A DNA stretch of 32,000 nt from Nanopusillaceae archaeon (GCA_038735675.1 JAVYNJ010000002.1:1-32000), one strand, 5' to 3'. Shown: positions 1 to 30,056, numbered from the stretch's first letter. Program-made: numbers and translations. Notes: generated by a model not told the origin, from the sequence alone.

Positions 1-958
1 GATAGATTTCTTGATATTTATAATATATTGGTAAAGATACATTAGATAAGCCGTAAAGTATTCTTAAAAGATTTAATTTTTCAGATTTTTCTGAACGATT
101 TTTATAAAAAACTAAGAATGTTTTTTCTTCATTAGATATTCTAAATGAACCATCAATATATTCTTTAAATTTTGAGATATTATATATATTTCTTTCTCTA
201 ATTTCTTCTAGCGCATTTTTTAAGATATTTTTATAATCTTCCGCAAAAAATTTTATATAAAGAATTATACTAGGAACTAAACTATATGAAACTGATAAAT
301 TAAAACTTCTAGTAAATTTTTCTTTTTTTCCTTTATAAAAGTATTCTAATTCTTGACTAAACAAAATATCGTCATTTTTTATAGTAAATTTCTTTTGTTT
401 AATATCAATAGTAAAATTTGTATAATTATAAATCGCTTTTGCATGTCTTTCAAAAATATTACTGTTTAAATAATTTGATTCTAACTTGTTTACAAAATTT
501 TTATTAAATTCTGAATGAAAATTAATTATTGGTGGAAATTCAAAACATGGAAAATATAAAAATATTGTATATGAATTTCCAGATGCATCTGTATAATTGT
601 CCACAACGAATTCAAATATGTTTTCGCATCTAAGTAAATATGAATTTATCTTCGAATTATTTAATAAAAGTTTATTGTATATCCATGGATTTAAAGTTCC
701 ATTAAGTATACTAATACTTAAAATCTCTCTATAAAGAGTTTCAAAAAATATTCTTCTTACCTCATAATCTGATAAAACATAAGTATAGAATTGAAAATAA
801 TTATAATTCATGAAATCTTTCAATAAATCCAGGCCATATTCTCTCTTTTCTTCCAAATAAATATTCACACCAAATATCGAAATCGCAAAACCAGAAATTA
901 AAATTATTAGAGATATTAAAAGGGCTATTGCTGGATATGAAGTAGATTTAATTTTCAT
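1..958 (-). CDS. Hypothetical N-terminally membrane-anchored/secreted protein, C-terminus beyond window edge (>=319 aa); missing from ORF track
   Basis: Hand translation of the minus strand from ATG 958-956 stays open to position 1: MKIKSTSYPAIALLISLIILISGFAISIFGVNIYLEEKREYGLDLL...YYKYQEIY. The start forms an ATGA overlap with the stop of ORF 955..1464. K-S followed by ~22 hydrophobic residues. No catalytic motif recognised. Confidence 0.7.
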   Translation of the reverse strand, partial: MKIKSTSYPAIALLISLIILISGFAISIFGVNIYLEEKREYGLDLLKDFMNYNYFQFYTYVLSDYEVRRIFFETLYREILSISILNGTLNPWIYNKLLLNNSKINSYLLRCENIFEFVVDNYTDASGNSYTIFLYFPCFEFPPIINFHSEFNKNFVNKLESNYLNSNIFERHAKAIYNYTNFTIDIKQKKFTIKNDDILFSQELEYFYKGKKEKFTRSFNLSVSYSLVPSIILYIKFFAEDYKNILKNALEEIRERNIYNISKFKEYIDGSFRISNEEKTFLVFYKNRSEKSEKLNLLRILYGLSNVSLPIYYKYQEIY

Positions 959-1464
959 TGTCCACATTCTTTTCCATAACCAAAAGTAGATTCAAAATTA
1001 ATCCCACATATTCTAATATATCCATAAGCAGATGGAAGTATATATTCTGATTCGCAATTTCCAGAACAGAACACATCAGTGCAATATTCAAAATTTATTG
1101 AGTTATTTCCATAATATAATTTTGTAGAATATAATATATTGTCTATTTCAGAAAATTCATTGTTATCAAAAAATGTTGCAGAAATTATTAAATCTATAAT
1201 CGGAACAGTAAAATTATAAGAATTATCTGCTCGAGAAGATAATAAAGAGTTAATGTTTCTAATTACCATAGAAGCCACAGCCATCGAAATTTGTTGATTT
1301 AAATTTGATGGAATAGTAGAGTTAACATTAATCATTATAACAAATATTAAAATTGAAATCGCCAATAAAAAAGTAAGAACTAAATAAAAGGATATATATC
1401 CTCTTTTATTTTTAAAAATTCTATTATTCATACTTATTTTATTGTTATTTATAATTTTTAACAT
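955..1464 (-). CDS. Hypothetical prepilin-like protein (class III signal-like N-terminus, Cys-rich C-terminus)
   Basis: N-terminus ...RIFKNKRG|YISFYLVLTFLLAISILIFVIM has a basic tip, Gly, then a ~22-residue hydrophobic helix. 5 Cys lie in the last 45 aa (EYCTDVFCSGNC...RICG...KECGQ). Overlaps the upstream gene by 7 nt; an alternative start at M12 is possible. Confidence 0.6.
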   Translation of the reverse strand: MLKIINNNKISMNNRIFKNKRGYISFYLVLTFLLAISILIFVIMINVNSTIPSNLNQQISMAVASMVIRNINSLLSSRADNSYNFTVPIIDLIISATFFDNNEFSEIDNILYSTKLYYGNNSINFEYCTDVFCSGNCESEYILPSAYGYIRICGINFESTFGYGKECGQ

Positions 1465-2237
1465 TTTTCTTCTTTAACTTCTATTGTTCTTTTTCCTGTC
1501 TCTGGATTTTTTATAAAAGTATATATTACTTTTTTACATTCTTTTCCTCTTATTCTAATAAATTTATAAGTATTAATTGCGTAAAGTTCTCTTTTTGTAT
1601 TTATAGCTAAAATTGGAAGAGACATAATAGTGCTAATATAATATGTTCTATCTGTATCACAACTTAATAAATTTTCTATATTCGATTCGTATTCCAACAT
1701 GCTTATTGCTTTATCCATTAATTCTATATTTTTCATAAACCAATTAATTGGATTTATATAATCTAAAAAAGAATTCCATATGTTTTTTTGTTCATCATAA
1801 AACAAATCTTTTCCATGTTCCTTTATCCAAATTTTTCTTTTATTTTTTAAATCATAAAAAAGAAATATAGGGACCTCTGAAACGTTTCTAATATTATATT
1901 TAATAATAATACTGTCTATTTCAGTTTTATTTTCCAATAGTTCTTTATATTCATTAGAAATTATAGTAAAACAATTTTTTAAGGAACTATAATCATTTAT
2001 TTTCTCTATTTCTGCTGGAAAATAAAATAAATAATAAGGATCTTTGATTTCATCGTAGATGCAATAATATAATCTTTGAACATAAATTGTATTTAAAAAA
2101 TAACCGTAAGAATTAGTATCAAAAAGAACTTGATTTTCTACTTGAAAAAAAGCAGATAGATATATAGCAACTCCAACTACTGAAAATATTGAAATTAAAT
2201 ATAATATAATATCTGTAAATGATAAAGATTTTTTCAT
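1458..2237 (-). CDS. Hypothetical N-terminally anchored protein (259 aa)
   Basis: MKKSLSFTDIILYLISIFSVVGVAIYLSAFF: K-S followed by a hydrophobic helix. The rest is Y/N/K-rich with 5 Cys. Lies 2 nt downstream of the preceding gene. Confidence 0.6.
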   Translation of the reverse strand: MKKSLSFTDIILYLISIFSVVGVAIYLSAFFQVENQVLFDTNSYGYFLNTIYVQRLYYCIYDEIKDPYYLFYFPAEIEKINDYSSLKNCFTIISNEYKELLENKTEIDSIIIKYNIRNVSEVPIFLFYDLKNKRKIWIKEHGKDLFYDEQKNIWNSFLDYINPINWFMKNIELMDKAISMLEYESNIENLLSCDTDRTYYISTIMSLPILAINTKRELYAINTYKFIRIRGKECKKVIYTFIKNPETGKRTIEVKEEKC

Positions 2238-2239
2238 TT

Positions 2240-3304
2240 TTATTTTTTAACTTTTTCATAACTTGGCCATATAATTATTTTTCTCTTACTTTCATTCTTA
2301 TAAATCGCTATATTTTTCAACAGATATGCCCACTGATCCTCACAAGGTTGATAGCCTGTAATTTTATATATTTTATTGTTCTCATATTTACTTAGACTTT
2401 TACATTCAAAAACATCTATAAAGTTCAACTCTATATTTAAATTAGGTGTATATTCTATTCTTTCCATTTGATTATATATAACTTGTTTCCCAAATCCATC
2501 TATTAAAGAATACAAGCAATTATATTCTACATCAAATGATCCTCTTATAATAGAGACTATATTATCTATTGTTTCTATAAAAAAGTTAGCAATAAATGCT
2601 ATTACAATTCCTATACCAGTAGAACTTAAAGCTTTAGTTATTATCATTCTTATAGCTCCAGATAATACTACTTTTCCGGCCGTCTCCGCATAATTAGAGA
2701 GAAAATCATTTTTAATTTCATCAGCCAACTTTGCTGGATTGGAAAAATAAGATTTTGTTCTAATAAAATTTGCAAGCATTTCTTGCATTTCCATTGGTCT
2801 CTTTGAACCAAAAATAGGTAATAAAACAAAAATTCCTTCAAAAATTTTAGAAAATATGTATGCTCTTGTAATCTCTATAAAAGAAACTTTTAAAAATGCT
2901 TTAATCATATCTATTCTAAAAGGCATTTTTCCAATTCCTGCAAAAGCTCCACCAGCAATAGTATACATCAATGCGTTAATCGCATCAACCGATATCTCTT
3001 GTAGATGATCTTTCAAAATACAAATTCCTGAAGATACATATGCCGGATAATATCCTAAAGATCCTTTAGAATAAGAAGATATTCTGTATTCTATAAATTC
3101 CATTCCCGGAGTATCTATTAATGAAGAAAATTCTCCTATATTAGAAGAAAAATAGTTTATAGAAACTGCAATCTGATAAATAGTGAAAGGATTTAATGAT
3201 GTCAAATATTTCATATTTAGAAATGCAAGCTTAGCTGTAATTATTATTGAAAAAGAGATTATTAAAAACATTAAAATAACGTTTAAAAACTCTCCAATAT
3301 CCAT
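2240..3304 (-). CDS. Hypothetical multi-pass membrane protein (354 aa)
   Basis: N-terminus MDIGEFLNVILMFLIISFSIIITA plus further hydrophobic/Gly-rich segments (AINALMYTIAGGAFAGIG, IFEGIFVLLPIFG, STGIGIVIAFIANFFI). The N-terminal motif is shared with two micro-ORFs in the cluster. Confidence 0.6.
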   Translation of the reverse strand: MDIGEFLNVILMFLIISFSIIITAKLAFLNMKYLTSLNPFTIYQIAVSINYFSSNIGEFSSLIDTPGMEFIEYRISSYSKGSLGYYPAYVSSGICILKDHLQEISVDAINALMYTIAGGAFAGIGKMPFRIDMIKAFLKVSFIEITRAYIFSKIFEGIFVLLPIFGSKRPMEMQEMLANFIRTKSYFSNPAKLADEIKNDFLSNYAETAGKVVLSGAIRMIITKALSSTGIGIVIAFIANFFIETIDNIVSIIRGSFDVEYNCLYSLIDGFGKQVIYNQMERIEYTPNLNIELNFIDVFECKSLSKYENNKIYKITGYQPCEDQWAYLLKNIAIYKNESKRKIIIWPSYEKVKK

Positions 3305-3314
3305 TAACCTATAT

Positions 3315-4151
3315 TTAAGTTTTGGGAATTATAAACCTTATTTCTCTTTTGCTAGAATTTACGAAAACATTAAAAGGTATGGCCATTAATAATCCTTTTT
3401 CAACTAAATCTGACTTAGGATCTAATTCTTGTATTTCATTATTGCAAACATCCAAATTAAACTCTTTTATTGTTCTATTTATCCAAACTTTTGAAGATTC
3501 CCCGAACAAAAAAGAACCCAAGCTTTTTCTTACAGTTGAATTGTTTATTTCAAATTTATTATTTATATCTTTTATTTTAATTGAACAAATATCTTTAAAA
3601 TCTCCTATTCTACCATTAAATATATAAACTTTTTCTAAATCATAAATATTACTTTCGTACATAAAGTAATATTTTTTTCTTTCTGTTTCTATTTTCAAAG
3701 TATAAACGGATATGTTTTTTCCATTATTTTCAATTATTATCGTCGTACTAGAATTTAAAATTGGCCTAGTTCTCTTTAAAACTCTACAATTTTGACTAAA
3801 AACTCTGTATAAATCTTTATCACTAACTGAAAAATACATCTTTCCTTCAATCTCCTCACATTTTATTAAATATATTCTTCCGTCACTAAAATTAAAATAA
3901 AAATCATATTTAACTGGATTATAATAAAATTCTTCCGTCCAAAGTCTTTCCTCACAGATTTTATTATAAATACAATCCACAAAAGATTTTTCAATAAAAT
4001 TCATTAATTTAATATAACTAATGTCTTCGAAAATTGCTAAGCTAGCAATAGAAGAGATTGCATAAGATATTAATACAATTAGAATTATTAATATAAAAAT
4101 ATCAAATAAAACTTTCAGAAATAAAGTACCTATCAGTAAAGACTTTTTCAT
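3315..4151 (-). CDS. Hypothetical N-terminally anchored protein (278 aa)
   Basis: MKKSLLIGTLFLKVLFDIFILIILIVLISYAI. The stop of the upstream gene abuts its start (4152/4151). Ectodomain contains 6 Cys. Confidence 0.6.
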   Translation of the reverse strand: MKKSLLIGTLFLKVLFDIFILIILIVLISYAISSIASLAIFEDISYIKLMNFIEKSFVDCIYNKICEERLWTEEFYYNPVKYDFYFNFSDGRIYLIKCEEIEGKMYFSVSDKDLYRVFSQNCRVLKRTRPILNSSTTIIIENNGKNISVYTLKIETERKKYYFMYESNIYDLEKVYIFNGRIGDFKDICSIKIKDINNKFEINNSTVRKSLGSFLFGESSKVWINRTIKEFNLDVCNNEIQELDPKSDLVEKGLLMAIPFNVFVNSSKREIRFIIPKT

Positions 4152-4496
4152 CTAAATATTTTTATTAAGTAACTCTTCGGCCCTTTCTTCTATTTTATAG
4201 GAAATTATTCCTCTATAAATTAGATAATATATCATAACCATAGCAACTATTACTACTATAGCTAAAATTAAAAAAACAAAAAATGACATTGAATTTGTTC
4301 TCTTATTCTTCAAATTCTTTTTTGGATATAAAATTATAGGAGAAGATATAGATAATATTTCATCCATTTTTTTTGACACATTTAATACATCTGCTCTTCT
4401 AACTACTGCTCCATAATAATAAATTATTAAAGCTAACATAATTAACAACCCAACAAATGTGAGAATTATAATAACTATAGATCTATCTACTCCCAT
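4152..4496 (-). CDS. Hypothetical small two-TM membrane protein (114 aa)
   Basis: Two hydrophobic helices (IVIIILTFVGLLIMLALIIYYY and FFVFLILAIVVIVAMVMIYYLIY) separated by a basic loop (KKNLKNKRTN). Confidence 0.55.
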   Translation of the reverse strand: MGVDRSIVIIILTFVGLLIMLALIIYYYGAVVRRADVLNVSKKMDEILSISSPIILYPKKNLKNKRTNSMSFFVFLILAIVVIVAMVMIYYLIYRGIISYKIEERAEELLNKNI

Positions 4497-4627
4497 CCTA
4501 TTATTTTATCTCTTAGGTTTTGTATAGCTTCATTTATATTTGGCAATATATAAAATACTAAAAAAAACAACAATAAAGCTAAAATTAATATCGAAATAAA
4601 AAGTTTGATAAATTCTCCAATCTCCAT
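4487..4627 (-). CDS. Unannotated micro-ORF, 46-aa single-TM protein
   Basis: Hand translation: MEIGEFIKLFISILILALLLFFLVFYILPNINEAIQNLRDKIIGWE*. Its ATG overlaps the upstream TAA (TAATG at 4625-4629). Its 3' end overlaps the next ATG by 10 nt. Below the ORF-track length cutoff. Confidence 0.5.
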   Translation of the reverse strand: MEIGEFIKLFISILILALLLFFLVFYILPNINEAIQNLRDKIIGWE

Positions 4628-5688
4628 TATTGGGGTAATTTATTTGAAATAACAACAATTTCTCCTAATCCAGTATATTTGATCAAAATTATATAAACAT
4701 TCTCATTTGCTTCATCATCATAAATTATATAATCCTCTTTCTCTTGTTCATTATCTAAATCGTAATACATACCTATCAATTTTATGCTTCCTCTTTCTCT
4801 GTTTATAGAAAAACTATCTGATTTTGCGCTACAATACTTGTTATAAATATAATAAATACTTCCAACGGGCTCTGCATTCGCTTCTGATTTTTGATAAAAT
4901 ATCTCATAAAAAGTCTTATTTTCTTTAATATCTATTAGATCAAAAACTGTAATTATATCTGCTACAGACAGATTTAAGGGTATTGAACTTTTTAAGATTA
5001 TAACATAATGTACATGGGCAAATGGCATATTTACGCTTGTTCCTATAGTTTCTCCAAAACTATAAATTATATACTTTGATATTTGATATGCTAAACATAA
5101 TTTAATTTTTTCATTTTTATTAGAATTATTCATAAAATACTGATCAACCCAATTATTTTTCGCTTGAACTTTAATTTCCTTTTTAAGATCTATTATGCAT
5201 TTATCTAAATAAGAATCGTCCCACTTATTCATATCTATGTTTATAACACTCGTTCCACACATATTTTTTATAATTGGCTTTTGTAAATTAGATAAACCTG
5301 CATTTACTGTATTACCTAACGCATATAAACCAATTCCTCCAATAATTGCTCCAGTTAATGCTGTTTTAGCATATTTATTCGTAATTACTCTCTTTGCAGC
5401 ATTCATGAGAGTTGGAATATTAAATTTTTTTCCCACAAAATATGCCGAGACTGTTCCAGCTAAAATTGTTACTGCAGCTGTTGCCATTGTAAATCCAACA
5501 TTACTAATTGCTGCATTTTGATCCATAAATAACCCCAAAGGTGCTGCTATTGCATATGATAACTTACAATTCCATCTTCCAGCATATCCAACACTTTTTA
5601 GAACATAATAAAAAATAATAAATATAAAGGTAAAAGATATTATTGCAACTAAAAGCTTTACTAAAGTTGGTGCACTAAGGTTTTTCAT
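4627..5688 (-). CDS. Hypothetical membrane-anchored protein, paralog B of tandem pair (353 aa)
   Basis: N-terminal TM, then AGRWNCKLSYAIAAPLG, a Gly/Ala-rich hydrophobic stretch and conserved Cys. Alignable by eye with 5728..6831 along its whole length. Confidence 0.65.
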   Translation of the reverse strand: MKNLSAPTLVKLLVAIISFTFIFIIFYYVLKSVGYAGRWNCKLSYAIAAPLGLFMDQNAAISNVGFTMATAAVTILAGTVSAYFVGKKFNIPTLMNAAKRVITNKYAKTALTGAIIGGIGLYALGNTVNAGLSNLQKPIIKNMCGTSVINIDMNKWDDSYLDKCIIDLKKEIKVQAKNNWVDQYFMNNSNKNEKIKLCLAYQISKYIIYSFGETIGTSVNMPFAHVHYVIILKSSIPLNLSVADIITVFDLIDIKENKTFYEIFYQKSEANAEPVGSIYYIYNKYCSAKSDSFSINRERGSIKLIGMYYDLDNEQEKEDYIIYDDEANENVYIILIKYTGLGEIVVISNKLPQ

Positions 5689-5727
5689 ATTATTAAATTA
5701 TTTTATTTTCAAAAAATATATTTTTTA

Positions 5728-6831
5728 TTAATTATTAATTTTTATAGAAATCAACAAAATTGATCCTTGACCATCATATCCTATAGTAATTCTATAAACT
5801 CCAGGAGAATCAAAAATAATTTCATTTTTCGGATCATTTATATTATTCAAATCAAAATAAAATGATATAATTTTATTTATACCGTCTTCAGGATAACAAA
5901 CAGGTCTTCCAGTTCCTTTTCTCAAATAATATTGATAATTATATTCTAAATACAAATTTGCACTTAAAATTTCTTTGCAATATTGCTTATCTTCTCCATA
6001 AATTTCATCATAAAACGAGGTTATTTTTTCATTTTTTCTAAATTCTATAATGTCTAAAAATGCTAAAAGATCTGCTAAATATATTTTTTGATCTAAAGTA
6101 TAATTTACAAAGAGAACGTAATGAGAAACTCCTTCTCCAAGCTTAACAGAAGATTTTAAACTTTCTAAATAAGTATTTCTAACATAATCAGATAAAATAT
6201 ACATTAAACATGTTAGGTTTGAATTTTCTGAAAAAAAACCATTCAAAATTTCTTTTTTATCTTTATCTAAAACCTCTTTATAGAGAGCACTCTTACATTT
6301 ATCTATATTAATACTATTTAATAAAATAACGTGTTCTTCAACTAAAGTAGGACATAATGACTTTAATAATCCCTTTTGCAAACGTGCAATCATTTCTGTT
6401 AATCTAATATTGAAATTATCTGTCTTTAAAGTACCTTTAATAACTCCAGAATAGATATAAAGCTTATTTTTACTATAAGTATTTTTTAAATTATAAGAAA
6501 AAATTGCTCTAAAATATGGTGGATCTACACTTTCTTCATAAATCCTTTGTAATTTCGTAGATTCTAATTTAGATTCAGTTAATGTACCTAATAAACTTAC
6601 AAAAGCATCTGCAGATATTAAAATCATTGGTAACCATTCATGTGATTTTTCTACAACTGCCATAGAAGAAGTAATTGTTCCTAAAGGAGCACTAAAGGCA
6701 TAAGCAAGTTTACATTCAAATCTTCCTCCGGATTTAATTAAAGGTAACAAATTGAAGAAAATATAAAATAAAATTATTAAAAAAACGAATATTGAAATTA
6801 AAATACTTAAACTAATTTCAGATTTTTTCAT
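5728..6831 (-). CDS. Hypothetical membrane-anchored protein, paralog A of tandem pair (367 aa)
   Basis: MKKSEISLSILISIFVFLIILFYIFF..GGRFECKLAYAFSAPLG. Motifs shared with 4627..5688 include INIDKC / INIDMNK..DKC, HYV(L/I), ADL(L/I)..(L/F)D(I/L)I(E/D) and a C-terminal beta-like Y.I.I.Y.G.G.I..IS.K. Confidence 0.65.
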   Translation of the reverse strand: MKKSEISLSILISIFVFLIILFYIFFNLLPLIKSGGRFECKLAYAFSAPLGTITSSMAVVEKSHEWLPMILISADAFVSLLGTLTESKLESTKLQRIYEESVDPPYFRAIFSYNLKNTYSKNKLYIYSGVIKGTLKTDNFNIRLTEMIARLQKGLLKSLCPTLVEEHVILLNSINIDKCKSALYKEVLDKDKKEILNGFFSENSNLTCLMYILSDYVRNTYLESLKSSVKLGEGVSHYVLFVNYTLDQKIYLADLLAFLDIIEFRKNEKITSFYDEIYGEDKQYCKEILSANLYLEYNYQYYLRKGTGRPVCYPEDGINKIISFYFDLNNINDPKNEIIFDSPGVYRITIGYDGQGSILLISIKINN

Positions 6832-6850
6832 AACTATAATCTATATTTCT

Positions 6851-6958
6851 TTATTTAAATTCTTTAAGAACTCTAGAAAAAAATGAAAACAAAAGAGCAA
6901 CTGCTAAAATAAATAAAATAATGTAAAGTAATAATTTTAGAATATCTTCAAACTCCAT
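6851..6958 (-). CDS. Unannotated micro-ORF, 35-aa single-TM protein
   Basis: Hand translation: MEFEDILKLLLYIILFILAVALLFSFFSRVLKEFK*. Starts 2 nt after the stop of the 55-aa ORF. N-terminus resembles MEIGEFIKLF (4487..4627) and MDIGEFLNVI (2240..3304). Confidence 0.4.
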   Translation of the reverse strand: MEFEDILKLLLYIILFILAVALLFSFFSRVLKEFK

Positions 6959-6960
6959 TT

Positions 6961-7128
6961 TTACTTTAAAGTTTTATTTAATGTTTCATTAATCGTTTTA
7001 TTAACTCTTTCTATATTTATAGATCCAAATTGATATAATCGGTATATTATAACAATTCCTAAAACCAATAATAGAATGCTCAAAATAATAATTATTGTTT
7101 TTTCTATAGCTAAACTTTTTCTTTTCAT
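6961..7128 (-). CDS. Unannotated micro-ORF, 55-aa Flp/Epd-sized pilin-like protein
   Basis: Hand translation: MKRKSLAIEKTIIIILSILLLVLGIVIIYRLYQFGSINIERVNKTINETLNKTLK*. ATGA overlap with the stop of 7125..7526. Basic tip, K-S, then an A-I-E motif and a hydrophobic helix. Confidence 0.5.
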   Translation of the reverse strand: MKRKSLAIEKTIIIILSILLLVLGIVIIYRLYQFGSINIERVNKTINETLNKTLK

Positions 7129-7526
7129 CTTACTTTACAAGTTTCTATATTTATTATCTTTTTTTCACAATCATAATAAACATCACATAAATATGTTAAT
7201 CTACCTAAATTTGAAATTTTTATGCACTCTACTTCAAACTTTATTAAATTTTCTTTAATTTCATTTATGACACTATAACTTATTTGATTACATCCATACT
7301 TTGTTTTAATAAAATTGGAGACATCATTTGATATTTTCATGACGTTTTCCAAATAACATGTATTAGAAAAATTTACGTTTTTCCATGATTCATTTGTAGC
7401 ATTATATATTCTTGTCTCACTTTTACTATAACTATTATAATAGATATACATTAAAATAATAACTGTAATTAAAACTATTAAAGATAAAAGAATTGTAGCT
7501 ATCTTATTGAAAGCAAATTCAGACAT
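7125..7526 (-). CDS. Hypothetical N-terminally anchored Cys-rich protein (133 aa)
   Basis: MSEFAFNKIATILLSLIVLITVIILMYIYY, then a domain with 6 Cys and several N-x-S/T sequons. 1-nt overlap with the upstream gene. Confidence 0.6.
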   Translation of the reverse strand: MSEFAFNKIATILLSLIVLITVIILMYIYYNSYSKSETRIYNATNESWKNVNFSNTCYLENVMKISNDVSNFIKTKYGCNQISYSVINEIKENLIKFEVECIKISNLGRLTYLCDVYYDCEKKIINIETCKVR

Positions 7527-7735
7527 TATTTAATTGAAGAAATATTAGTCATATTTTTTATCAATTTATTTACATCAACTGTTTGATTTTCAACTGTCTT
7601 TGTAATATCTCCAATCGATTTGGTACCTGATGAGTACATTGAAAAGTAATATATTAATATAGTTGTTAAGATTATTATAACTAACAGTAAGATTGCTAAA
7701 GTTCCAAAAGCAATCTCTACTGTTCTTTTTTTCAT
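7526..7735 (-). CDS. Hypothetical small pilin-like protein (69 aa), first gene of the array
   Basis: MKKRTVEIAFGTLAILLLVIIILTTILIYYF: basic tip, E-I-A-F-G, a 25-residue hydrophobic helix and a short polar tail. Confidence 0.6.
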   Translation of the reverse strand: MKKRTVEIAFGTLAILLLVIIILTTILIYYFSMYSSGTKSIGDITKTVENQTVDVNKLIKNMTNISSIK

Positions 7736-7773
7736 TTAATAAATAAATATTTTTTGTTTTTTATAAGATTTAT
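7736..7773. promoter_or_regulatory. 38-bp divergent intergenic region with two interleaved TATA-like boxes
   Basis: ttaataaataaatattttttgttttttataagatttat. The A/T box near 7742-7750 is centred ~27 nt upstream of the argS ATG (7774). The box ttataag near 7759-7766 is ~27 nt upstream of the minus-strand ATG (7735). The AT-rich background limits certainty. Confidence 0.4.
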
Positions 7774-9717
7774 ATGCAAATCTTAAAAGATTATTTAAAA
7801 GATTTCGAAATTGAATTTTCAGAAGCTAGAAAGAATTCTGAATTTGATCTAACTATAAAGATTTTCAAGGAAATAAAAAAAGGTAAAAAACCTGAAGATA
7901 TATCCAAAAAAATTTTAGAAAATATAAAAGAATTTGTAGACAAGCATGAACTAATTAATGGATATTTAAATATAAAACTAAAATATGACAGAATTATAAA
8001 AGAATATAAAAAATTATTGGATTTTAAAGATATTGAAAAGAAAAGTATAATAATAGAACATACTTCTGTTAATCCAAATAAAGCTTTACATATAGGACAT
8101 TTAAGAAATGCAATTTTAGGAGATTCCTTAAATAGATTATTAAGCTTTTTAGGAAATAAAGTTACTGTATTAAATTATATTGATGATACCGGATCTCAGG
8201 TAGCAGATATAGTTGTTGGATTTTATTATTTGGGTTTTTCCCAAAACCCAGATGAGTTTAATGAAAAGAATTTAATAGAAAATCTAAAAAAATATGTAAA
8301 AAATCTAAAAGAAGAAGAAATAATTGAAATTATAAAAAGTAGAAAAAATAGCTTAAAAAACTTATATGGATATGAAATACCTAAAAAATTTGATCATTAT
8401 TGCGGAGATTTTGTTTATGTTATTATAAATAAACTTTATGAAAAATTTCCAGAAATAGAAAAATTAAAAAAAGAGGTATTAAAAAAAATAGAAGAAGGTA
8501 ATAATGAAATATATTTTTTCTCTCAAAATATAACAAGAAAAATAATTCTTGATCAATTAAAAACGCTATGGAATTTTGATATATATTATGATTTATTAAA
8601 TAAAGAATCAGATATAATTAAACAAGGATTCTGGGATAAAGTCTTCAGTATATTAAAAGAAAAAAACATAATAAAATTTGAATCAGAAGGAGATAAAAAA
8701 GGAACTTGGATAATAGATTTATCTAGATGGAAAGAGTTCGATGGTTATGAAGACAAGAAAAAAGTTTTAGTAAGATCTGATGGAACTACAGTATACTTAG
8801 CCAAAGATATTGCTTATGCTTTTTGGAAACTAAATATAATTCAAAGTGATTTTAAATATTCTGTATTTTCGATACAACCAAATGGAAAAATATTATATGA
8901 AACTTCACCAAATGGAGAAATAGATAACTTTAAGTTTAACGATTGTGATGTATCTATAAATGTAATAGGAGCTGAACAATCTTATTTACAATTAATAATC
9001 AAAAAAATTATCGAAGATATGTATCCAAATAAAACATACATACATTATAAATATAATCTCGTAATGTTATCAAAAGATACAGCAAAAATATTTGGAATAG
9101 ATAATGAAAAAAAATTATTTAAAATGTCTGGAAGAAAGGGAATATTTATAAATGCTGATAATCTTTTAGAAAAAACAAAAGAGTTTACATATAAAAAGCT
9201 AATTGAAAGAGGTTTTAATGAAGAAGAAGCAAAAAAATTAGCTTTTTATATAGCTAGAAGTACAATATGCTTTGAAATATTAAAGTATGACACCAATAGT
9301 ATTGTAGCTTTTGATATAAATAGAATGACGAATATTGAAGAAGGAAACGCGTTGTATTTAATGTATACTTATGCTAGAATACTTTCTTTAATTGAAAAAT
9401 CGGGAATAGATGAAAAAGAAATAGAAAAACTTAATAAATTCAGTATTGATAACCTAAATGAATATGAAAAAAGATTAATTTTAAAACTATTTTTGTTTAA
9501 AGATATTATATTAGAAACATATAAATCTCTAGAAATAAATAAATTAGCTAAATATGCCGTTGATTTAGCCAAAATATTTAACGAATTTTATCAAAATGTT
9601 CCAATAATTCCAGAAATTTCTAATAAACCTTACAGACTGTTTTTAGTATTCCTAACTAAAAAGATTTTGGAAAACTTATTTTACATATTGAAAATAGATA
9701 CTGTTAGAAAGATATAA
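7774..9717 (+). CDS. argS: Arginyl-tRNA synthetase
   Basis: Class I HIGH region NPNKALHIGHLRNAILGD, ArgRS-type KMSKS equivalent FKMSGRKG, C-terminal helical anticodon-binding region. 647 aa. Confidence 0.9.
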   Translation: MQILKDYLKDFEIEFSEARKNSEFDLTIKIFKEIKKGKKPEDISKKILENIKEFVDKHELINGYLNIKLKYDRIIKEYKKLLDFKDIEKKSIIIEHTSVNPNKALHIGHLRNAILGDSLNRLLSFLGNKVTVLNYIDDTGSQVADIVVGFYYLGFSQNPDEFNEKNLIENLKKYVKNLKEEEIIEIIKSRKNSLKNLYGYEIPKKFDHYCGDFVYVIINKLYEKFPEIEKLKKEVLKKIEEGNNEIYFFSQNITRKIILDQLKTLWNFDIYYDLLNKESDIIKQGFWDKVFSILKEKNIIKFESEGDKKGTWIIDLSRWKEFDGYEDKKKVLVRSDGTTVYLAKDIAYAFWKLNIIQSDFKYSVFSIQPNGKILYETSPNGEIDNFKFNDCDVSINVIGAEQSYLQLIIKKIIEDMYPNKTYIHYKYNLVMLSKDTAKIFGIDNEKKLFKMSGRKGIFINADNLLEKTKEFTYKKLIERGFNEEEAKKLAFYIARSTICFEILKYDTNSIVAFDINRMTNIEEGNALYLMYTYARILSLIEKSGIDEKEIEKLNKFSIDNLNEYEKRLILKLFLFKDIILETYKSLEINKLAKYAVDLAKIFNEFYQNVPIIPEISNKPYRLFLVFLTKKILENLFYILKIDTVRKI

Positions 9718-9718
9718 T

Positions 9719-9808
9719 TGGGCCCGGGGGGAATTGAACCCCCGACCTCCGGCTTTCTTAGGAGCCCGACCATATAAGGCCGGCGCTCCACCACTGAGCT
9801 ACGGGCCC
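9719..9808 (-). tRNA. tRNA-Ile, anticodon UAU, with 18-nt intron (9755-9772) at the canonical 37/38 position
   Basis: Reverse complement is GGGCCCG-TA-GCTC-AGTGGTG-GAGC-G-CCGGC-CTTATA[TGGTCGGGCTCCTAAGAA]A-GCCGG-AGGTC-GGGGG-TTCAATT-CCCCC-CGGGCCC-A. C32-A35 pair with intron UAAG to give a 4-bp helix flanked by 3-nt bulges UA|U and AA|A (bulge-helix-bulge). No encoded CCA. Confidence 0.9.
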
Positions 9809-9901
9809 ATTAGAAATATTAATAAAATATAATCTTTTTTAATTTCACCTTCACTTTTACCAAGGATCTTATTTTATAAAAATTTAAATAAAATATGAAA
9901 A

Positions 9902-11917
9902 ATGGAAGAATTAATTGAAAAAACAAAAGAAATATCTGAAGAAAAGCTTTCTAAATTGTTTGAAAATTGTAAAGATGAAATTAACGATTATATAAATAAT
10001 ATAACTTCTTCTATTGTAATATCACATAAAAAAATTCTAACTTTTTTAGGAATAGAAGCTGCAGAAAAAATTATCGAAAATCCAGAATTATATTTAGATC
10101 TCTTATCCGAGTACTTTTCTATAAGATTAGGCATAAATAAAAAAGTCAAAGTAAGAATCAAAGACATATCTGATAAAACTAGAATAAAAAGAATAAGGGA
10201 CATAAGATCTGAAGATACTGGAAAAATTATACAAGTAGATGGAATTATAAAAATCTCCTCTAGCGTTGTTCCAGTAATAAACAAAGTCAAGTATAGGCAT
10301 GATGAATGTGGAGGAGAGTTTTGGTTAGAATCTAAAGAATTTAATATAGAAAGCTTAAAACCAAAGAGATGTCCTTTATGCAGGAAATTTGGTGGAAAAT
10401 TTTTTAAATTAGAAGAATCGTATATCGATGTTCAAAGATTATTAATAGAAGAACCTGCAGAACAAATAGAAAAAGGGGAGCAGCCAGATCAAATAATTGT
10501 AATATTAAAAGAAGATCTTTGTGAGCCCAGAATGGAAAGAAAAACAATTCCAGGAACTAGAATAAGAATATCTGGCATAGTTAAAAGTTTTAAGAAGCAA
10601 AAAGAAAGACTTTTCTTAGAAAAATATATAGATGCTATATATATAGAGCCTTTAGATAAGGATATAGAAGAGATAAAGATAACACAAGAAGATGAAGAAA
10701 AAATAAAAGAAATAGCTAAATCAGAAGATGTTTTATCTACAATAGCTAGATCAATAGCTCCCGATATATTTGGATATCAATACGAAATTATAAAACAAGC
10801 AATTGTTCTTCAATTAGTTGGAGCATCTGAAAAATCTGAAAAAAGATTCAGAAAAAATATTCATATTCTTTTAGTAGGAGATCCTGGTACTGGTAAATCT
10901 TCTCTATTATTCAAAGTCCATGAAATTGCCCCTAAATCAAAATTTGTAACAGGTATAACTGCAACTTCGGTTGGTTTAACTGCTTCTGTAAGAAAAGACG
11001 AAATTCTAAAAGGAGGATGGGTTTTAGAGGCAGGTGCTTTGGTTTTAGCTTCGGGAGGTATAATATGTATAGACGAACTAGACAAACTTTCCGTAGAAGA
11101 ACTCCAACATTTGCATGAAGCAATGGAACATCAAACAATAACTATAGATAAAGCAAACATTCATGCAACATTAAGAGCGGATACTGCTGTTTTAGCAGCA
11201 GCTAATCCAAAATTTGGTAGGTGGGATAGAATGAAAAATATAGCCGATCAGATAGATTTACCAATAACAATAATAAATAGATTTGATTTAATATTTATAT
11301 TACAAGATGTTCCAGATCCAAATATAGATGGCAAAATCGCAGAAGAAATATTAGGAACTTTAAAACAAAAACCAAATCCACCAATACCTATTGATTTATT
11401 AAGAAAATATATTGCATATGCTAAAAAAATAAATCCTATTTGGACAGATAAAGCTATAGAAAGAGTAAAAAAGTTCTATATTGATTTGAGATCTAGAGCT
11501 AAAGAAGAAGCTATACCCATTACTCTAAGGCAATTGAATTCTATAATAAGATTATCTGAAGCTTCAGCCAAGATAAGATTATCTGAAATTATAACAGAAG
11601 AAGATGTGATGATTGCTGAAAAATTATTATTACATAGTTTAAAACAAGTAGGAATAAATCCAGAAACATCACAACTAGATATAGATTTAATAACTACGGG
11701 ATTCTCATCTACAGAAAGAAAAAGAGGAGGAATTATATTAGATACAATCAAAAATTTGGCAAAAGATTTTCCATCTGGTGTTCCAATCTCTGAGATAACT
11801 AAATACGTAGAAAAGTACAATTTATCAAAAGATGACGTCCTTAGTACTATAGAGAAACTTCTTAAGGAAGGATATATCTATGAGGCTGCACCAGAGAAAT
11901 ACTTGCCTACATCATGA
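9902..11917 (+). CDS. mcm: MCM replicative helicase
   Basis: Zn finger (HDECGGEF...CPLCRKFG), Walker A GDPGTGKS, Walker B CIDELDK, arginine-finger region NRFDLIFIL, C-terminal winged-helix-like tail. 671 aa. Confidence 0.95.
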   Translation: MEELIEKTKEISEEKLSKLFENCKDEINDYINNITSSIVISHKKILTFLGIEAAEKIIENPELYLDLLSEYFSIRLGINKKVKVRIKDISDKTRIKRIRDIRSEDTGKIIQVDGIIKISSSVVPVINKVKYRHDECGGEFWLESKEFNIESLKPKRCPLCRKFGGKFFKLEESYIDVQRLLIEEPAEQIEKGEQPDQIIVILKEDLCEPRMERKTIPGTRIRISGIVKSFKKQKERLFLEKYIDAIYIEPLDKDIEEIKITQEDEEKIKEIAKSEDVLSTIARSIAPDIFGYQYEIIKQAIVLQLVGASEKSEKRFRKNIHILLVGDPGTGKSSLLFKVHEIAPKSKFVTGITATSVGLTASVRKDEILKGGWVLEAGALVLASGGIICIDELDKLSVEELQHLHEAMEHQTITIDKANIHATLRADTAVLAAANPKFGRWDRMKNIADQIDLPITIINRFDLIFILQDVPDPNIDGKIAEEILGTLKQKPNPPIPIDLLRKYIAYAKKINPIWTDKAIERVKKFYIDLRSRAKEEAIPITLRQLNSIIRLSEASAKIRLSEIITEEDVMIAEKLLLHSLKQVGINPETSQLDIDLITTGFSSTERKRGGIILDTIKNLAKDFPSGVPISEITKYVEKYNLSKDDVLSTIEKLLKEGYIYEAAPEKYLPTS

Positions 11918-12507
11918 AGCAATACAAACCTATTTTTTCTAATGAAATAGAAAATAATAAAGATGCTTTTGTTGCTCTAATTGGAAAAATTTTAGAGATT
12001 TATAATGAAAGAAAATATATAAAAATTAATTGTATTGATAGCAAAGGATATTTTTCTATAATTTCATATGAACCATTAGATATCGATAAATTTGCTACTA
12101 TATTAGTTTTAGGAAAAATAAAGGAATTTAACGGTCAAAACTTTGTTTACTCCAAGAAAATAATTATTTTAAAAGATCCAAATGATGAATTAATATGGAG
12201 AGAATTTTTCATTAGAGAAAAAGCAAAAAAAAGAATAAAATTAAACAAAAAACCAGAGGAATATTCTAAAAAATATGATAAATTTGATATAAAAGAAAAA
12301 AAAGAAGTTGTTGAAGATAAAGATATAAAAATTAAAAAAGAAATATTGGAATTTATAAAAGAAAATGATAGAGGTGATGGAGTTTCTTTTGAAGAAATAA
12401 GAAAATACTTTGAAATACCTGAAGAATCGCTAAAAAGATATATTGAAGATTTATTATCAATAGGTGAAATTTATGAATTTTCTCCTAATAAATACAAAGC
12501 AATATGA
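11914..12507 (+). CDS. OB-fold + C-terminal winged-helix protein, RPA32/Stn1-like (putative ssDNA-binding subunit)
   Basis: FVALIGKILEI...IKINCIDSKGYFSII...ILVLGKIKEFNGQNFVYSKKIIILKDPNDELIWREFF follows the RPA32 OB-D pattern (V.IVG....Y.IDD.TG...YV.V.G.L..F.....L....I..L.D.NE...H). A K/E linker is followed by the wH-like ILEFIKENDRGDGVSFEEIRKYF...LLSIGEIYE. ATGA overlap with the MCM stop. Confidence 0.5.
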   Translation: MKQYKPIFSNEIENNKDAFVALIGKILEIYNERKYIKINCIDSKGYFSIISYEPLDIDKFATILVLGKIKEFNGQNFVYSKKIIILKDPNDELIWREFFIREKAKKRIKLNKKPEEYSKKYDKFDIKEKKEVVEDKDIKIKKEILEFIKENDRGDGVSFEEIRKYFEIPEESLKRYIEDLLSIGEIYEFSPNKYKAI

Positions 12508-19288: not shown

Positions 19289-20083
19289 CTAAGATAAAGA
19301 AAGAACCTGATCAAAAAATTCTATTGGTAATGCCCCTGAAAATCCCAAAATAAAATACTTTCTATCGGAAGATATCCACATGTTATATGAAAATCCATAG
19401 GGTTTTAATTGATCTAGGATATTTTTCACTTCTTTTATTCTTTCTTCAGATATCTTGTTAATATTTATGGCTATAATAAAAGATGGCGTTCCCATCATTC
19501 CATAGATTTTAACAGCTTCATATGTTTCTGCGTCAATTAACTTCTCTATTTCGTTGTTTTTAATACAATCCTCAACATCCTTATATTTATTTAGCGTTTC
19601 ATTAATAGATATTTCTAAATTTGTACCGTTTTTTAAGTATAAAACATTATTATATACTTCTCTCAAAATTTCTGATTTATAATTAATATATTCCTCTAAA
19701 CCTTTTTCTTTATAGATACAAGCTGCATATAAAGATAGTTTTTTTGCTAAATCCCCATGAACTATAAGATTTTTATATACATAACTTATCTTTCCACTAT
19801 CTATATATTTTTTCTTAATCTCTGGAAAAACTTCAAAATAAAAGGCCGCACAAAAGGGACATAAATATTCCATATATTCATAAATAATTATATCTGAGGA
19901 ATTTCCATACACTGCATTATAATATTCAATTTTTGGTAAATCAATAGGCTTCAAGCTATGTAAGATACTTTTTTCCAATTGTAATTCTCTAATTAATACA
20001 TAATTATATATACTAAAAACCATAGCCAAGATTGATGACGACAAGCTTATGTACATTAAAAATTTGTCATTAAATTTGCTCAT
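19289..20083 (-). CDS. Membrane-anchored DsbA-like thiol:disulfide oxidoreductase (thioredoxin fold)
   Basis: N-terminal TM (FLMYISLSSSILAMVFSIYNYVL) followed by SDIIIYEYMEYLCPFCAAFYFEVFPEIKKKYIDSGKISYVYK, i.e. a CPFC active site in a DsbA/Thioredoxin_4-like context. Confidence 0.7.
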   Translation of the reverse strand: MSKFNDKFLMYISLSSSILAMVFSIYNYVLIRELQLEKSILHSLKPIDLPKIEYYNAVYGNSSDIIIYEYMEYLCPFCAAFYFEVFPEIKKKYIDSGKISYVYKNLIVHGDLAKKLSLYAACIYKEKGLEEYINYKSEILREVYNNVLYLKNGTNLEISINETLNKYKDVEDCIKNNEIEKLIDAETYEAVKIYGMMGTPSFIIAININKISEERIKEVKNILDQLKPYGFSYNMWISSDRKYFILGFSGALPIEFFDQVLSLS

Positions 20084-29060: not shown

Positions 29061-30056
29061 ATGATAACTTATATCGATCTTTTAAAATGGTTTATTGAAA
29101 ATCAAGAAAAAATAAATAACTCAATCGTTAGAGATGTTTTTTCAATAAAAAACGGTTTAGTTTTAGAAATATACAAAAAGGATTTAGAAAAAAGATATCT
29201 TTATATAATTCCGGGTAAAATAATTTTTTTATCTGACAAAAAATTAGAAAAAATAAAAAATAAATTTTCGGATAAATTAAAAAAAGATTTGATAAATAAA
29301 AAAATTCAAATATCTTTAGAAGATGATAAAATTTTAATAATAGAATCTGAAAACATCAAAATATATTGTGAATTAATTCCTAATGGATTAATAGTTGTAA
29401 CTGATATGGAAAATAAAATATTATATGCTACAAAATACAAGGATTTCGGATATAGAAAGATAAAATCAAATGAAAAATATCTTAAACCCCCAAAAAATTT
29501 TATTGTTGCAATAGAAATTTCTAAATTTAAGGAAAAGTTAGAAAAAACAAATAAAAAAGATATTGTTAGATTTTTAGCTATAGATTTAGGATTATCTGGA
29601 AAGTATGCCGAATATATACTAGAAAATCTAAATATTGAAAAATCAAAAAGTCCAAAAGATCTTTCCGATACAGAAATTGTCAATATTTTTAACCTTTACA
29701 AAAACTTATTTGAAAAAAAAGAAGTACTTTATGAAAATCAATGGTATTCTGATGTAAATTCTCTTTTTGAAAAGATATATTTTGATGAAGAAATAGAAAA
29801 TAAAAAGAAAATTATTGAAAAAAAGAAAGAAGAAATTAAAAAAATACTTGAAGATCAAAAACAAAAACTTTCAGATTTTGAAGAAGAAATAAAAAATTTA
29901 ATGGATATAGCCAACTTAATAAAGGAAAATTATTGGATATTTCAAGATTATAACATCGAAAATATAGAAAAATTTCTTAAATCTAAAAATTTAGATTTCT
30001 CAGTCGAAAAAAAAGATGGTAAAATATTTATAAAAATTAAAAACATAAATTCTTAA
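29061..30056 (+). CDS. NFACT-N/HhH/coiled-coil protein (N-terminal half of an Rqc2/NEMF/FbpA-like ribosome quality-control factor)
   Basis: IDLLKWFIENQEKINNSIVRDVFSIKNGLVLEIYKK...YLYIIPGKIIFLSD...KIYCELIPNGLIVVTDMENKILYATKYKDFGYRKIKSNEKYLKPP follows the NFACT-N pattern. HhH-like LAIDLGLSGKYAEYILENLNI, then a K/E coiled coil. No NFACT-R/DUF814 part; 331 aa. Confidence 0.6.
   Translation: MITYIDLLKWFIENQEKINNSIVRDVFSIKNGLVLEIYKKDLEKRYLYIIPGKIIFLSDKKLEKIKNKFSDKLKKDLINKKIQISLEDDKILIIESENIKIYCELIPNGLIVVTDMENKILYATKYKDFGYRKIKSNEKYLKPPKNFIVAIEISKFKEKLEKTNKKDIVRFLAIDLGLSGKYAEYILENLNIEKSKSPKDLSDTEIVNIFNLYKNLFEKKEVLYENQWYSDVNSLFEKIYFDEEIENKKKIIEKKKEEIKKILEDQKQKLSDFEEEIKNLMDIANLIKENYWIFQDYNIENIEKFLKSKNLDFSVEKKDGKIFIKIKNINS

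Follow-up and report, generated by a model that had tools for sequence, protein, structure and literature searches.

What is an unbroken run of thirteen genes, each encoding a membrane-anchored protein of no assignable family, doing amid the housekeeping genes of a nanoarchaeal symbiont? The run occupies positions 1 to 7735, on the minus strand, of a 32,000-nucleotide stretch of DNA (JAVYNJ010000002.1:1-32000, GCA_038735675.1; hereafter the window) from a Nanopusillaceae archaeon, a DPANN lineage with the reduced symbiont genome that a first-pass annotation, made from the sequence alone, had surmised. We conclude that the thirteen genes, g1 to g13, probably encode one lineage-specific, co-translated apparatus of the cell envelope. 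As the best single mechanism we tentatively propose, at somewhat less than even confidence, a set of type-IV-filament-like subunits served in trans.

Thirteen open reading frames (ORFs), abutting or overlapping, were placed by ORF calling exactly where the first-pass annotation had drawn its uninterrupted train, and the computed junctions (-1, -4, +2, +19, +39, -1, -10, 0, +10, +2, -7 and -4 nucleotides (nt), in order from g1 to g13) match its gap range of -10 to +39 nt. Read from the ArgRS side, the array comprises the following features, with lengths in amino acids (aa) and a slash marking the putative boundary between tip and helix.

7736..7773, no strand: A+T-rich divergent spacer of 38 nt between g1 and ArgRS (the latter by Pfam), the presumed promoter region of the operon.
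7526..7735, minus: g1, 69 aa, tiny single-helix protein, MKKRT/VEIAFG..., short tail with 3 N-x-S/T sequons.
7125..7526, minus: g2, 133 aa, N-terminal helix and ectodomain with 6 Cys, at the hypervariable position 2.
6961..7128, minus: g3, 55 aa, tiny single-helix protein, MKRKS/LAIEK..., tail with 3 sequons.
6851..6958, minus: g4, 35 aa, tiny helix with acidic tip MEFEDIL and basic C-terminal tail, a lineage-specific extra gene.
5728..6831, minus: g5, 367 aa, MKKS/EISL..., g6 paralogue and lineage-specific duplicate.
4627..5688, minus: g6, 353 aa, signature family of the cluster.
4487..4627, minus: g7, 46 aa, tiny helix with acidic tip MEIGEF.
4152..4496, minus: g8, 114 aa, two helices, start DRS/I, a fusion of two small proteins.
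3315..4151, minus: g9, 278 aa, MKKS/LLIGTLFLKVLFD..., N-terminal helix and ectodomain with 6 Cys and 7 sequons.
2240..3304, minus: g10, 354 aa, acidic tip MDIGEF, N-terminal helix and more hydrophobic segments at about 148-166 and 220-249.
1458..2237, minus: g11, 259 aa, the best prepilin-like start of the array.
955..1464, minus: g12, 169 aa, ...NKRG/YISFYLVL...
1..958, minus: g13, first 319 of 571 aa in the window, MKIKS/TSYP..., 10 Cys and 13 sequons; closes the operon as its largest gene.

All 13 products carry an N-terminal hydrophobic stretch (best 19-residue Kyte-Doolittle mean 2.4-3.4), with extra hydrophobic segments in g5, g6 and g10 and two transmembrane helices in g8. Among the 24 other genes of the window, a hydrophobic N-terminal start is found in a DsbA-like protein only, and thirteen consecutive helix starts are therefore not chance. 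Of the charged tips that had been ascribed, together with the helix, to every product, three are acidic and not basic (g4, MEFED; g7, MEIGEF; g10, MDIGEF). The array had also been thought to run on beyond position 1. On the 92-kb source contig, however, g13 has its full 571 aa (L001 11280-12995) and is followed by a convergent TYW3 gene, so the array terminates at g13. A 154-aa single-helix protein, primase and FBPase come next. At the other end, the junction of ArgRS with the cluster recurs in the relatives L012 and L013.

The products have remained unassignable, as first described. In scans of every member against Pfam, NCBIfam and PHROG, the hydrophobic helix produced sub-threshold noise and nothing more; no enzyme or transporter signature appeared in the Pfam and NCBIfam results, and a PDB sequence search with g6 and g11 profiles returned nothing. 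Their composition is more informative. Cysteine makes up 1.7% of the cluster proteins, compared to 0.8% of housekeeping proteins, and the 25-35-residue tails of the tiny proteins hold 2-4 N-x-S/T sequons, an estimated several-fold excess over compositional expectation. The window also encodes, at 19289-20083 on the minus strand, a thioredoxin/DsbA-like protein of 264 aa that starts with a membrane helix and is the counterpart of the 'protein-disulfide isomerase' Nps_00090 of Nanopusillus acidilobi. The cultured symbiont YN1 encodes a VKOR homologue right next to the cluster on its upstream side, where N. acidilobi carries an ORF of 188 aa. The DsbA-like and VKOR genes would fit oxidative folding of the Cys-rich cluster proteins. 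From the cysteine excess, the sequon-rich tails and these two redox genes we infer that the products are not only membrane-anchored, as the first-pass annotation had it, but that the bulk of each is extracytoplasmic, disulfide-bonded and N-glycosylated.

Is the array a conserved unit? An exact match to g11 was found on three NCBI contigs of metagenome-assembled genomes (MAGs), including GCA_038823625.1, and g11 and its nearest relatives are labelled Nanopusillaceae or Nanoarchaeales. Over positions 1-12000, the window differs from three MAG contigs (L001-L003) by 0-0.9% of bases per gene, which makes it one more strain of their species; the 13 ORFs are intact wherever these strains cover them. 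At greater distance the same-order cluster lies between ArgRS and TYW3/primase in at least nine lineages, including the cultured N. acidilobi, Nanobdella aerobiophila MJ1 and YN1 (order kept in L012, L013, YN1, MJ1 and N. acidilobi, and partly in L004, L005, L008 and L009). Between ArgRS and TYW3, L013 encodes proteins of 61, 500, 62, 412, 43, 114, 286, 367, 306, 174 and 570 aa, and L012 proteins of 79, 140, 58, 394, (43), 118, 227, 309, 250, 172 and 484 aa; YN1, MJ1 and N. acidilobi have the counterpart set, interrupted behind position 2 by one or two reverse-strand genes. Homology is demonstrable for g1, g6, g7, the second half of g8, g9, g10, g11 and g13, and positional for g3 and g12. The ancestral cluster comprised 11 genes, with g4 and g5 gained in the window lineage; g4 is absent from the 11-gene clusters of L012, L013, YN1 and MJ1. 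A g11 profile scan of genome contigs traced the family to 13 GTDB species genomes, each of them belonging to Nanopusillus, Nanobsidianus, Nanobdella or YN1, and profile searches with g6 and g11 did not detect the cluster in N. equitans or outside this clade. The conservation in relatives that the first-pass annotation had named as a check is thus borne out. The cluster is not mentioned in the papers on YN1, N. aerobiophila, N. acidilobi or Nst1, on archaeal type IV pili, or in the 2026 TFF papers.

Directly downstream of TYW3, on the cluster strand, every lineage carries a single-helix protein of 152-158 aa (31-37% identity; L001 13581-14045). It may be a fourteenth member of the cluster split off by TYW3.

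How the cluster evolves bears on whether it could simply be a housekeeping complex of the clade's envelope that, for example, anchors the S-layer, exports or inserts surface proteins, or takes up host lipids, with no specific role in host recognition. Against relatives 60-75% identical (L004 and L005), dN/dS is 0.23-0.36, the 46-aa g7 and g8 included (g5, 0.27 against L004; g7, 0.33; g8, 0.23-0.36; g9, 0.27). On these ratios the cluster genes are real and under purifying selection, as a housekeeping role would have it. A strain-level pN/pS comparison of the window with L001-L003 (0.47 for the cluster, 0.30 for the flanks) was set aside, its 38 and 11 changes being too few for use. Inheritance is strictly vertical, and TYW3, primase and FBPase remain neighbours in all lineages, including those whose cluster proteins are only 20-30% identical; together with the constant presence of the 152-158-aa protein just downstream, this also suits a housekeeping complex. 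Other properties of the locus do not. Between the window and YN1 or MJ1, cluster proteins share 22-29% identity and flanking genes 48-74%, by which measure its evolutionary rate is two to three times that of the flanks. Moreover, the position-2 protein is hypervariable, in its length as in its sequence, g4 and g5 represent a lineage-specific duplication, and enzyme or transporter signatures are lacking. We regard a housekeeping complex as unlikely.

Position 2 deserves closer attention. The gene there encodes 133 aa in the window (g2), 140 aa in L012, 500 aa in L013 and 778-847 aa in YN1, MJ1 and N. acidilobi; the product is always Cys-rich, and similarity is detectable neither between g2 and the other position-2 proteins nor between size classes. 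The large form of MJ1, YN1 and N. acidilobi has a match in Sulfurisphaera ohwakuensis YN1HA, the cultured host of YN1: a gene of 497 aa on its 2.76-Mb chromosome (AP031374.1). The host gene lacks a membrane anchor and is 66% identical to residues 318-778 of YN1_3820 and 40% to MJ1_0040. Over about 2.3 kb, host DNA (L027 10016-12343) and the YN1 locus (L006 7473-9628) share 79-93% nucleotide identity; the segment spans the 3' two-thirds of the 778-aa position-2 gene and the adjacent reverse-strand gene, and lies in a G+C trough of 27.5-30% within surroundings of 34-40%. It looks like a recent transfer from symbiont to host, which the YN1 paper does not mention. A Stygiolobus sp. RP850M contig (JBBHKU010000053.1; L028 5641-9346) carries a 3.5-kb insert of 26-31% G+C, compared to 36-47% for the contig, which matches the corresponding two genes of N. 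acidilobi and Nanobsidianus stetteri at 75-79% identity and is flanked by host-type genes for aldehyde oxidase, Mrr and an ABC transporter. Two more hits, P0073 and P0090, carry a host label as well. From the alignments and base composition, one and the same piece of the homologous locus appears to have passed twice, independently, from symbiont to host. Since g2 is not homologous to the captured protein, the captures bear on the locus generally and not on the window's own genes.

The movement of part of the homologous locus into host genomes could also be expected of a mobile element, such as an integrated virus or plasmid, with membrane proteins that would merely resemble a cellular apparatus. 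Runs of small, homologue-free membrane proteins are typical of archaeal viruses, and g1 weakly matches the PHROG 'Rz-like spanin' family (E 7e-5). Yet the chromosomal position and gene order are identical in many lineages, G+C is 21-26% across the array as in its flanks, and there is no integrase, capsid or replication gene. The large proteins have no PHROG match, Foldseek against BFVD gave nothing, and g6-profile scans of genome, metagenome and viral (IMG/VR) contig collections confirmed no relative, their motif patterns being too specific. A mobile element is, on this evidence, highly improbable.

What kind of envelope apparatus, then, might the cluster encode? The first-pass annotation had read K-S or R-G ahead of the helix in six products as class III signals of the type cut by archaeal prepilin peptidases. 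The count is rather seven of 13, g8 (DRS/I) joining under the pattern [KR][GAS]. This tip, with mostly Ser at -1, is conserved within eight families across lineages and is for that reason not an accident of A+T-rich sequence. It occurs in about 26 of 35 basic-tipped cluster proteins from four lineages; in housekeeping controls, G, A or S follows K or R in 11% of cases and the motif appears in 2 of 24 N-termini. Within the g6 family, 18 of 26 members start with M-(x)-[KR]-[GAS], often followed by [IV]-S. The g11 family starts with [KR][SA]/[LF][SG][LF]x-D-I-[IV]-x-Y, in which Asp9, Ile10 and Tyr13 are invariant in 8 sequences, placing the Asp at +5 of the putative cleavage site. The g1 relatives keep [KR][ST]/V-E-I, and those of g12 and g13 keep a [KR][GS] tip. 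Taken over all families, acidic residues at +1 to +6 do not exceed background, and meaning attaches only to the family-specific invariance in g11 and g1.

The genomic background leaves room for such subunits. One nanoarchaeal type IV pilus ATPase is without identified pilins (PMC4858521), and the gene content of Nanoarchaeota includes several FlaJ/TadC homologues as well as type IV pilus ATPases (PMC6142677); the prepilin-like tips fit this gap. In N. acidilobi, genes of the ATPase and platform type lie elsewhere in the genome (e.g. Nps_02245/02250 and Nps_00520), and its gene table lists an arCOG01818 ATPase and TadC, no annotated pilin, and signal peptidase I as the only peptidase of this kind.

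We postulate that the 13 genes form one operon whose products assemble into a single multi-subunit structure in the cell envelope. Eight families (g1, g3, g5/g6, g8, g9, g11, g12 and g13), with their very short basic tip and a Gly, Ala or Ser before the helix, would be pilin-type subunits, several of them carrying a conserved acidic residue a few positions into the helix. The tiny, presumably glycosylated g1 and g3 may be the repetitive units, while the larger Cys-rich g2, g5/g6, g9, g11, g12 and g13 may serve as minor or tip subunits with binding domains. Processing and polymerization would be provided by an ATPase and platform encoded elsewhere in the genome. The products g4, g7, g8 and g10, marked by acidic tips, extra hydrophobic segments or, in g8, a second helix, would stay in the membrane as a base. 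Such a structure would act at the symbiont surface, probably in host contact.

Several observations weigh against this assignment to pilins. Models for Pilin_N, Class_IIIsignal, Arch_flagellin and the TIGR pilins matched none of the 13 proteins (E up to 1) and none of the 26 g6-family members (E up to 10); g1 comes nearest to a related model, TIGR04205 (class III signal protein family), at a sub-threshold E of 0.03 and 14 bits where the cut-off is 65. Starts of the MKKS type are also typical of plain signal anchors. The proposed class III signals are kept within families as a tip, with no match among the profiles; the putative leaders have 2-5 residues and mostly end in Ser. The usual archaeal class III leader has 6-12 residues with G or A at -1, and PibD is able to cut leaders of 3-4 residues (PMC4307647). 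Nor do all members look like pilins, so that the pilus-like reading of the first-pass annotation keeps its prepilin-like tips and loses g4, g7, g8 and g10. Three of these families (g4, g7 and g10), like the 500-aa protein of L013, start without a leader, on an acidic tip M-[ED]-x-G-E-[FL], and g8 is a fusion of two 'pilin-like' genes with, by its charge pattern, one helix apparently flipped, awkward for an extractable pilin. The machinery is not linked either. Extending the contigs, as the first-pass annotation had suggested, revealed no secretion ATPase, platform or peptidase within 10 kb of the cluster in eight lineages with flanks read (10 kb each side in L001, L006, L010, L012 and L013; contig sequence of L008 and L009; L017, with a like ORF layout). 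Two nanoarchaea are without a recognisable prepilin peptidase (Makarova et al. 2016, PMC4858521). N. acidilobi has, at Nps_00470-00525, another run of single-helix proteins, beside a TadC-like gene, whose members are at least as good pilin candidates. Finally, none of its 11 annotated orthologues of the cluster (Nps_00205-00255) was detected in its proteome, in which some 200 proteins were detected in all.

The g6 family allows the closest structural look. An exhaustive profile search of 1.84 billion proteins found 24 representative clusters, whose named sources are all nanoarchaeal save one sequence filed under Aenigmatarchaeota, and which include MJ1_0042 and YN1_3840. Members have in common their N-terminal helix, the conserved motif Y-x-G-R-x-x-C-K-x-A-Y-A, a hydrophobic stretch that is variable and rich in Ala/Gly, and an α/β ectodomain. 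A Glu...His-x-His metal site was considered and rejected because its His residues are not invariant; only Glu213 and Tyr228 are. The AlphaFold2 model of g6 (26-sequence alignment; pLDDT 81, pTM 0.79) predicts helices at 6-32 and 39-52, the second bearing the Y-x-G-R-x-x-C-K-x-A-Y-A motif, and a well-defined α/β domain at 125-353, with the Ala/Gly-rich region 57-122 at low confidence. This model, too, speaks against a pilin. Its N-terminal helix is predicted to break after residue 32, unlike that of a pilin fold, and the structure search foreseen by the first-pass annotation found no Foldseek neighbour, pilin or other, in PDB (best E 2.6) or BFVD (best E 0.26). A model of g11 from 6 sequences (pLDDT 36) was unusable.

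The remaining families differ in how far they can be traced. The L013 orthologue of g1 has 61 aa and the start MRS/VEISIS (E 2e-9), and in MJ1, YN1 and N. acidilobi its positional orthologues have 60-62 aa. In L004, g3 is 85% and g4 86% identical, and g3 has positional orthologues of 58-62 aa in L012 and L013. Paralogy of g5 and g6 is evident from 26% identity over the full length (E 9e-25). Orthologues of g7, of 43-44 aa, are found in L013, YN1, MJ1 and L009, with an uncalled one in L012 (hhalign probability 95%). For g9, hhalign gave 93% with genes of 273-304 aa in YN1, MJ1 and L008. Homologues of g10 occur in YN1 (E 1e-5) and L012 (E 3e-8), and the translations share the conserved motif N-P...Y-x-[ST]-S-x-P-G; judging from its hydrophobic segments, g10 is most likely the member that would remain embedded in the membrane. 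Orthologues of g12 have 155-174 aa (KKS/QIGFF, KRS/YFSYF), with weak similarity (E 0.01-0.03) and a conserved cluster position. The g13 homologue in L012 has 484 aa (E 1e-5), and positional orthologues elsewhere have 487-570 aa.

Two families depart from this pattern of simple orthology. The g8 gene exists as one two-helix gene in the window, L004, L005, L012 and L013, and as two separate genes of 49-63 aa in YN1, MJ1 and L009 (split forms compared at L006 11426-11763, L010 11293-11633 and L009 11388-11743); its second half matches the 49-52-aa genes with an hhalign probability of 95%. In the fused form the first tip has no positive charge and the linker retains a second basic stretch, a charge pattern which suggests that the first helix is oppositely oriented in the fused and split forms. 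The second departure concerns the tips themselves: g7 (MEIGEF) and g10 (MDIGEF) share an acidic, leaderless start though otherwise unrelated, and similar tips are seen in g4 and the 500-aa L013 protein (MEIGIK). Such starts could mark N-out anchors, or could mimic the N-terminus of a mature pilin with its Glu5.

If the cluster does not encode pilins, its products may be ordinary, uncleaved bitopic proteins that form the structural parts of the 'attachment organelle' of Nanobdellales, a layered cone replacing the S-layer, a portal and a membrane complex. This organelle has been imaged in N. aerobiophila, YN1 and YN4, in work that expressly leaves its genes open (PMC11420986, PMC11104419, 10.64898/2026.06.04.730037), so that a conserved, unassigned envelope operon is a natural place to look. 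The cluster is present in the cone-imaged MJ1 and YN1 (PMC11104419, PMC11420986). Its restriction to the clade, the fold of g6 with no neighbour in PDB or BFVD, and a fast evolution like that of host-interface proteins agree with such a role, as does the mixture of tiny membrane peptides, a multi-hydrophobic protein and large ectodomains, which is what an envelope-embedded machine would be expected to need. The capture of homologous-locus fragments by two Sulfolobales genomes, one of them the cultured YN1 host, points the same way. The link is nevertheless one of co-occurrence only, a pattern that any clade-specific gene would show. Furthermore, a cone of about 85,000 nm2 made of a repeating monomer should be abundant, and in the N. 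acidilobi proteome, from outside the imaged species, no orthologue was detected. We consider this assignment the main rival of the filament reading, possible if somewhat less likely. Slightly more doubtful is the specific proposal that the operon supplies cone, portal and membrane complex in order to open a bridge into the host cell. There, the Ala/Gly-rich hydrophobic stretch of g6 and the hypervariable Cys-rich position-2 protein would engage the host membrane and surface, and the host-captured copies of the locus would be host counter-measures, for example decoys. The organelle and a set of type-IV-filament-like subunits are not mutually exclusive readings of the operon.

Returning to the filament-like subunits, how closely does the cluster resemble systems already described? 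Archaeal pilin operons (epd of Methanococcus maripaludis) and bacterial minor-pilin and pseudopilin operons (fimU-pilVWXY1E, gspG-K) likewise form a tight run on one strand, mix small and large subunits, and encode a basic tip, a small residue and a helix of at least 20 residues; their loci may sit apart from ATPase and platform, and an acidic +5 residue is found in one cluster family (g11). They differ in that the cluster shows neither HMM nor fold evidence of pilin ancestry, has very short putative leaders that mostly end in Ser, and includes three acidic leaderless families, a two-helix fusion and no linked motor, platform or peptidase. The attachment organelle, with its cone, portal and filament visible by cryo-electron tomography (cryo-ET), occurs in the same organisms and is likewise envelope-embedded, multi-component, clade-restricted and at the host interface; it is defined by images alone, and its filament crosses the cytoplasm, which exported proteins do not explain. 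A third likeness is with the 'hypothetical external' proteins of Yellowstone Nanoarchaeota, which are uncharacterised, have one N-terminal helix and elevated non-synonymous diversity, and were proposed as host-binding mediators (Jarett et al. 2018, PMC6142677); the cluster products, with their rapid divergence, agree with this picture. They were treated there as a category, in which this operon, its order and its families were not singled out.

The rest of the window is of a different kind. Its 24 other genes are housekeeping genes, among them ArgRS, MCM, eIF2-beta, NMD3, IF-1A, L21e, RpoF, fibrillarin, Nop56, S10, EF-1alpha, IleRS, TBP, proteasome, FttA, Tmk, topoisomerase and an RLI-like ATPase. 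Between ArgRS and MCM, ARAGORN placed a 92-nt tRNA with undetermined anticodon (9718-9809, minus strand), which is probably intron-containing or otherwise atypical. A 331-aa ORF at 29061-30056 on the plus strand, amid the housekeeping genes, has no Pfam match.

The operon bears on how nanoarchaea attach to their hosts and take up resources from them: cryo-ET shows the organelle and extra filaments in three cultured systems, and no gene has been tied to either. The operon described here makes the question testable, as it is clade-specific, vertically kept and fast-evolving, and consists entirely of envelope proteins with no known relatives. It occurs in the cultured N. aerobiophila, YN1 and N. 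acidilobi, which are amenable to proteomics, antibodies and tomography. If its products are a pilin set, they would widen the sequence range of archaeal type IV filament subunits to very short, Ser-ended leaders and leaderless acidic tips; if they belong to the organelle, they would represent a new kind of intercellular machine. The fragments captured by two Sulfolobales genomes give an independent hint of the importance of the locus at the interface. As a whole, these thirteen genes are a candidate for the machinery that latches the symbiont onto its host.

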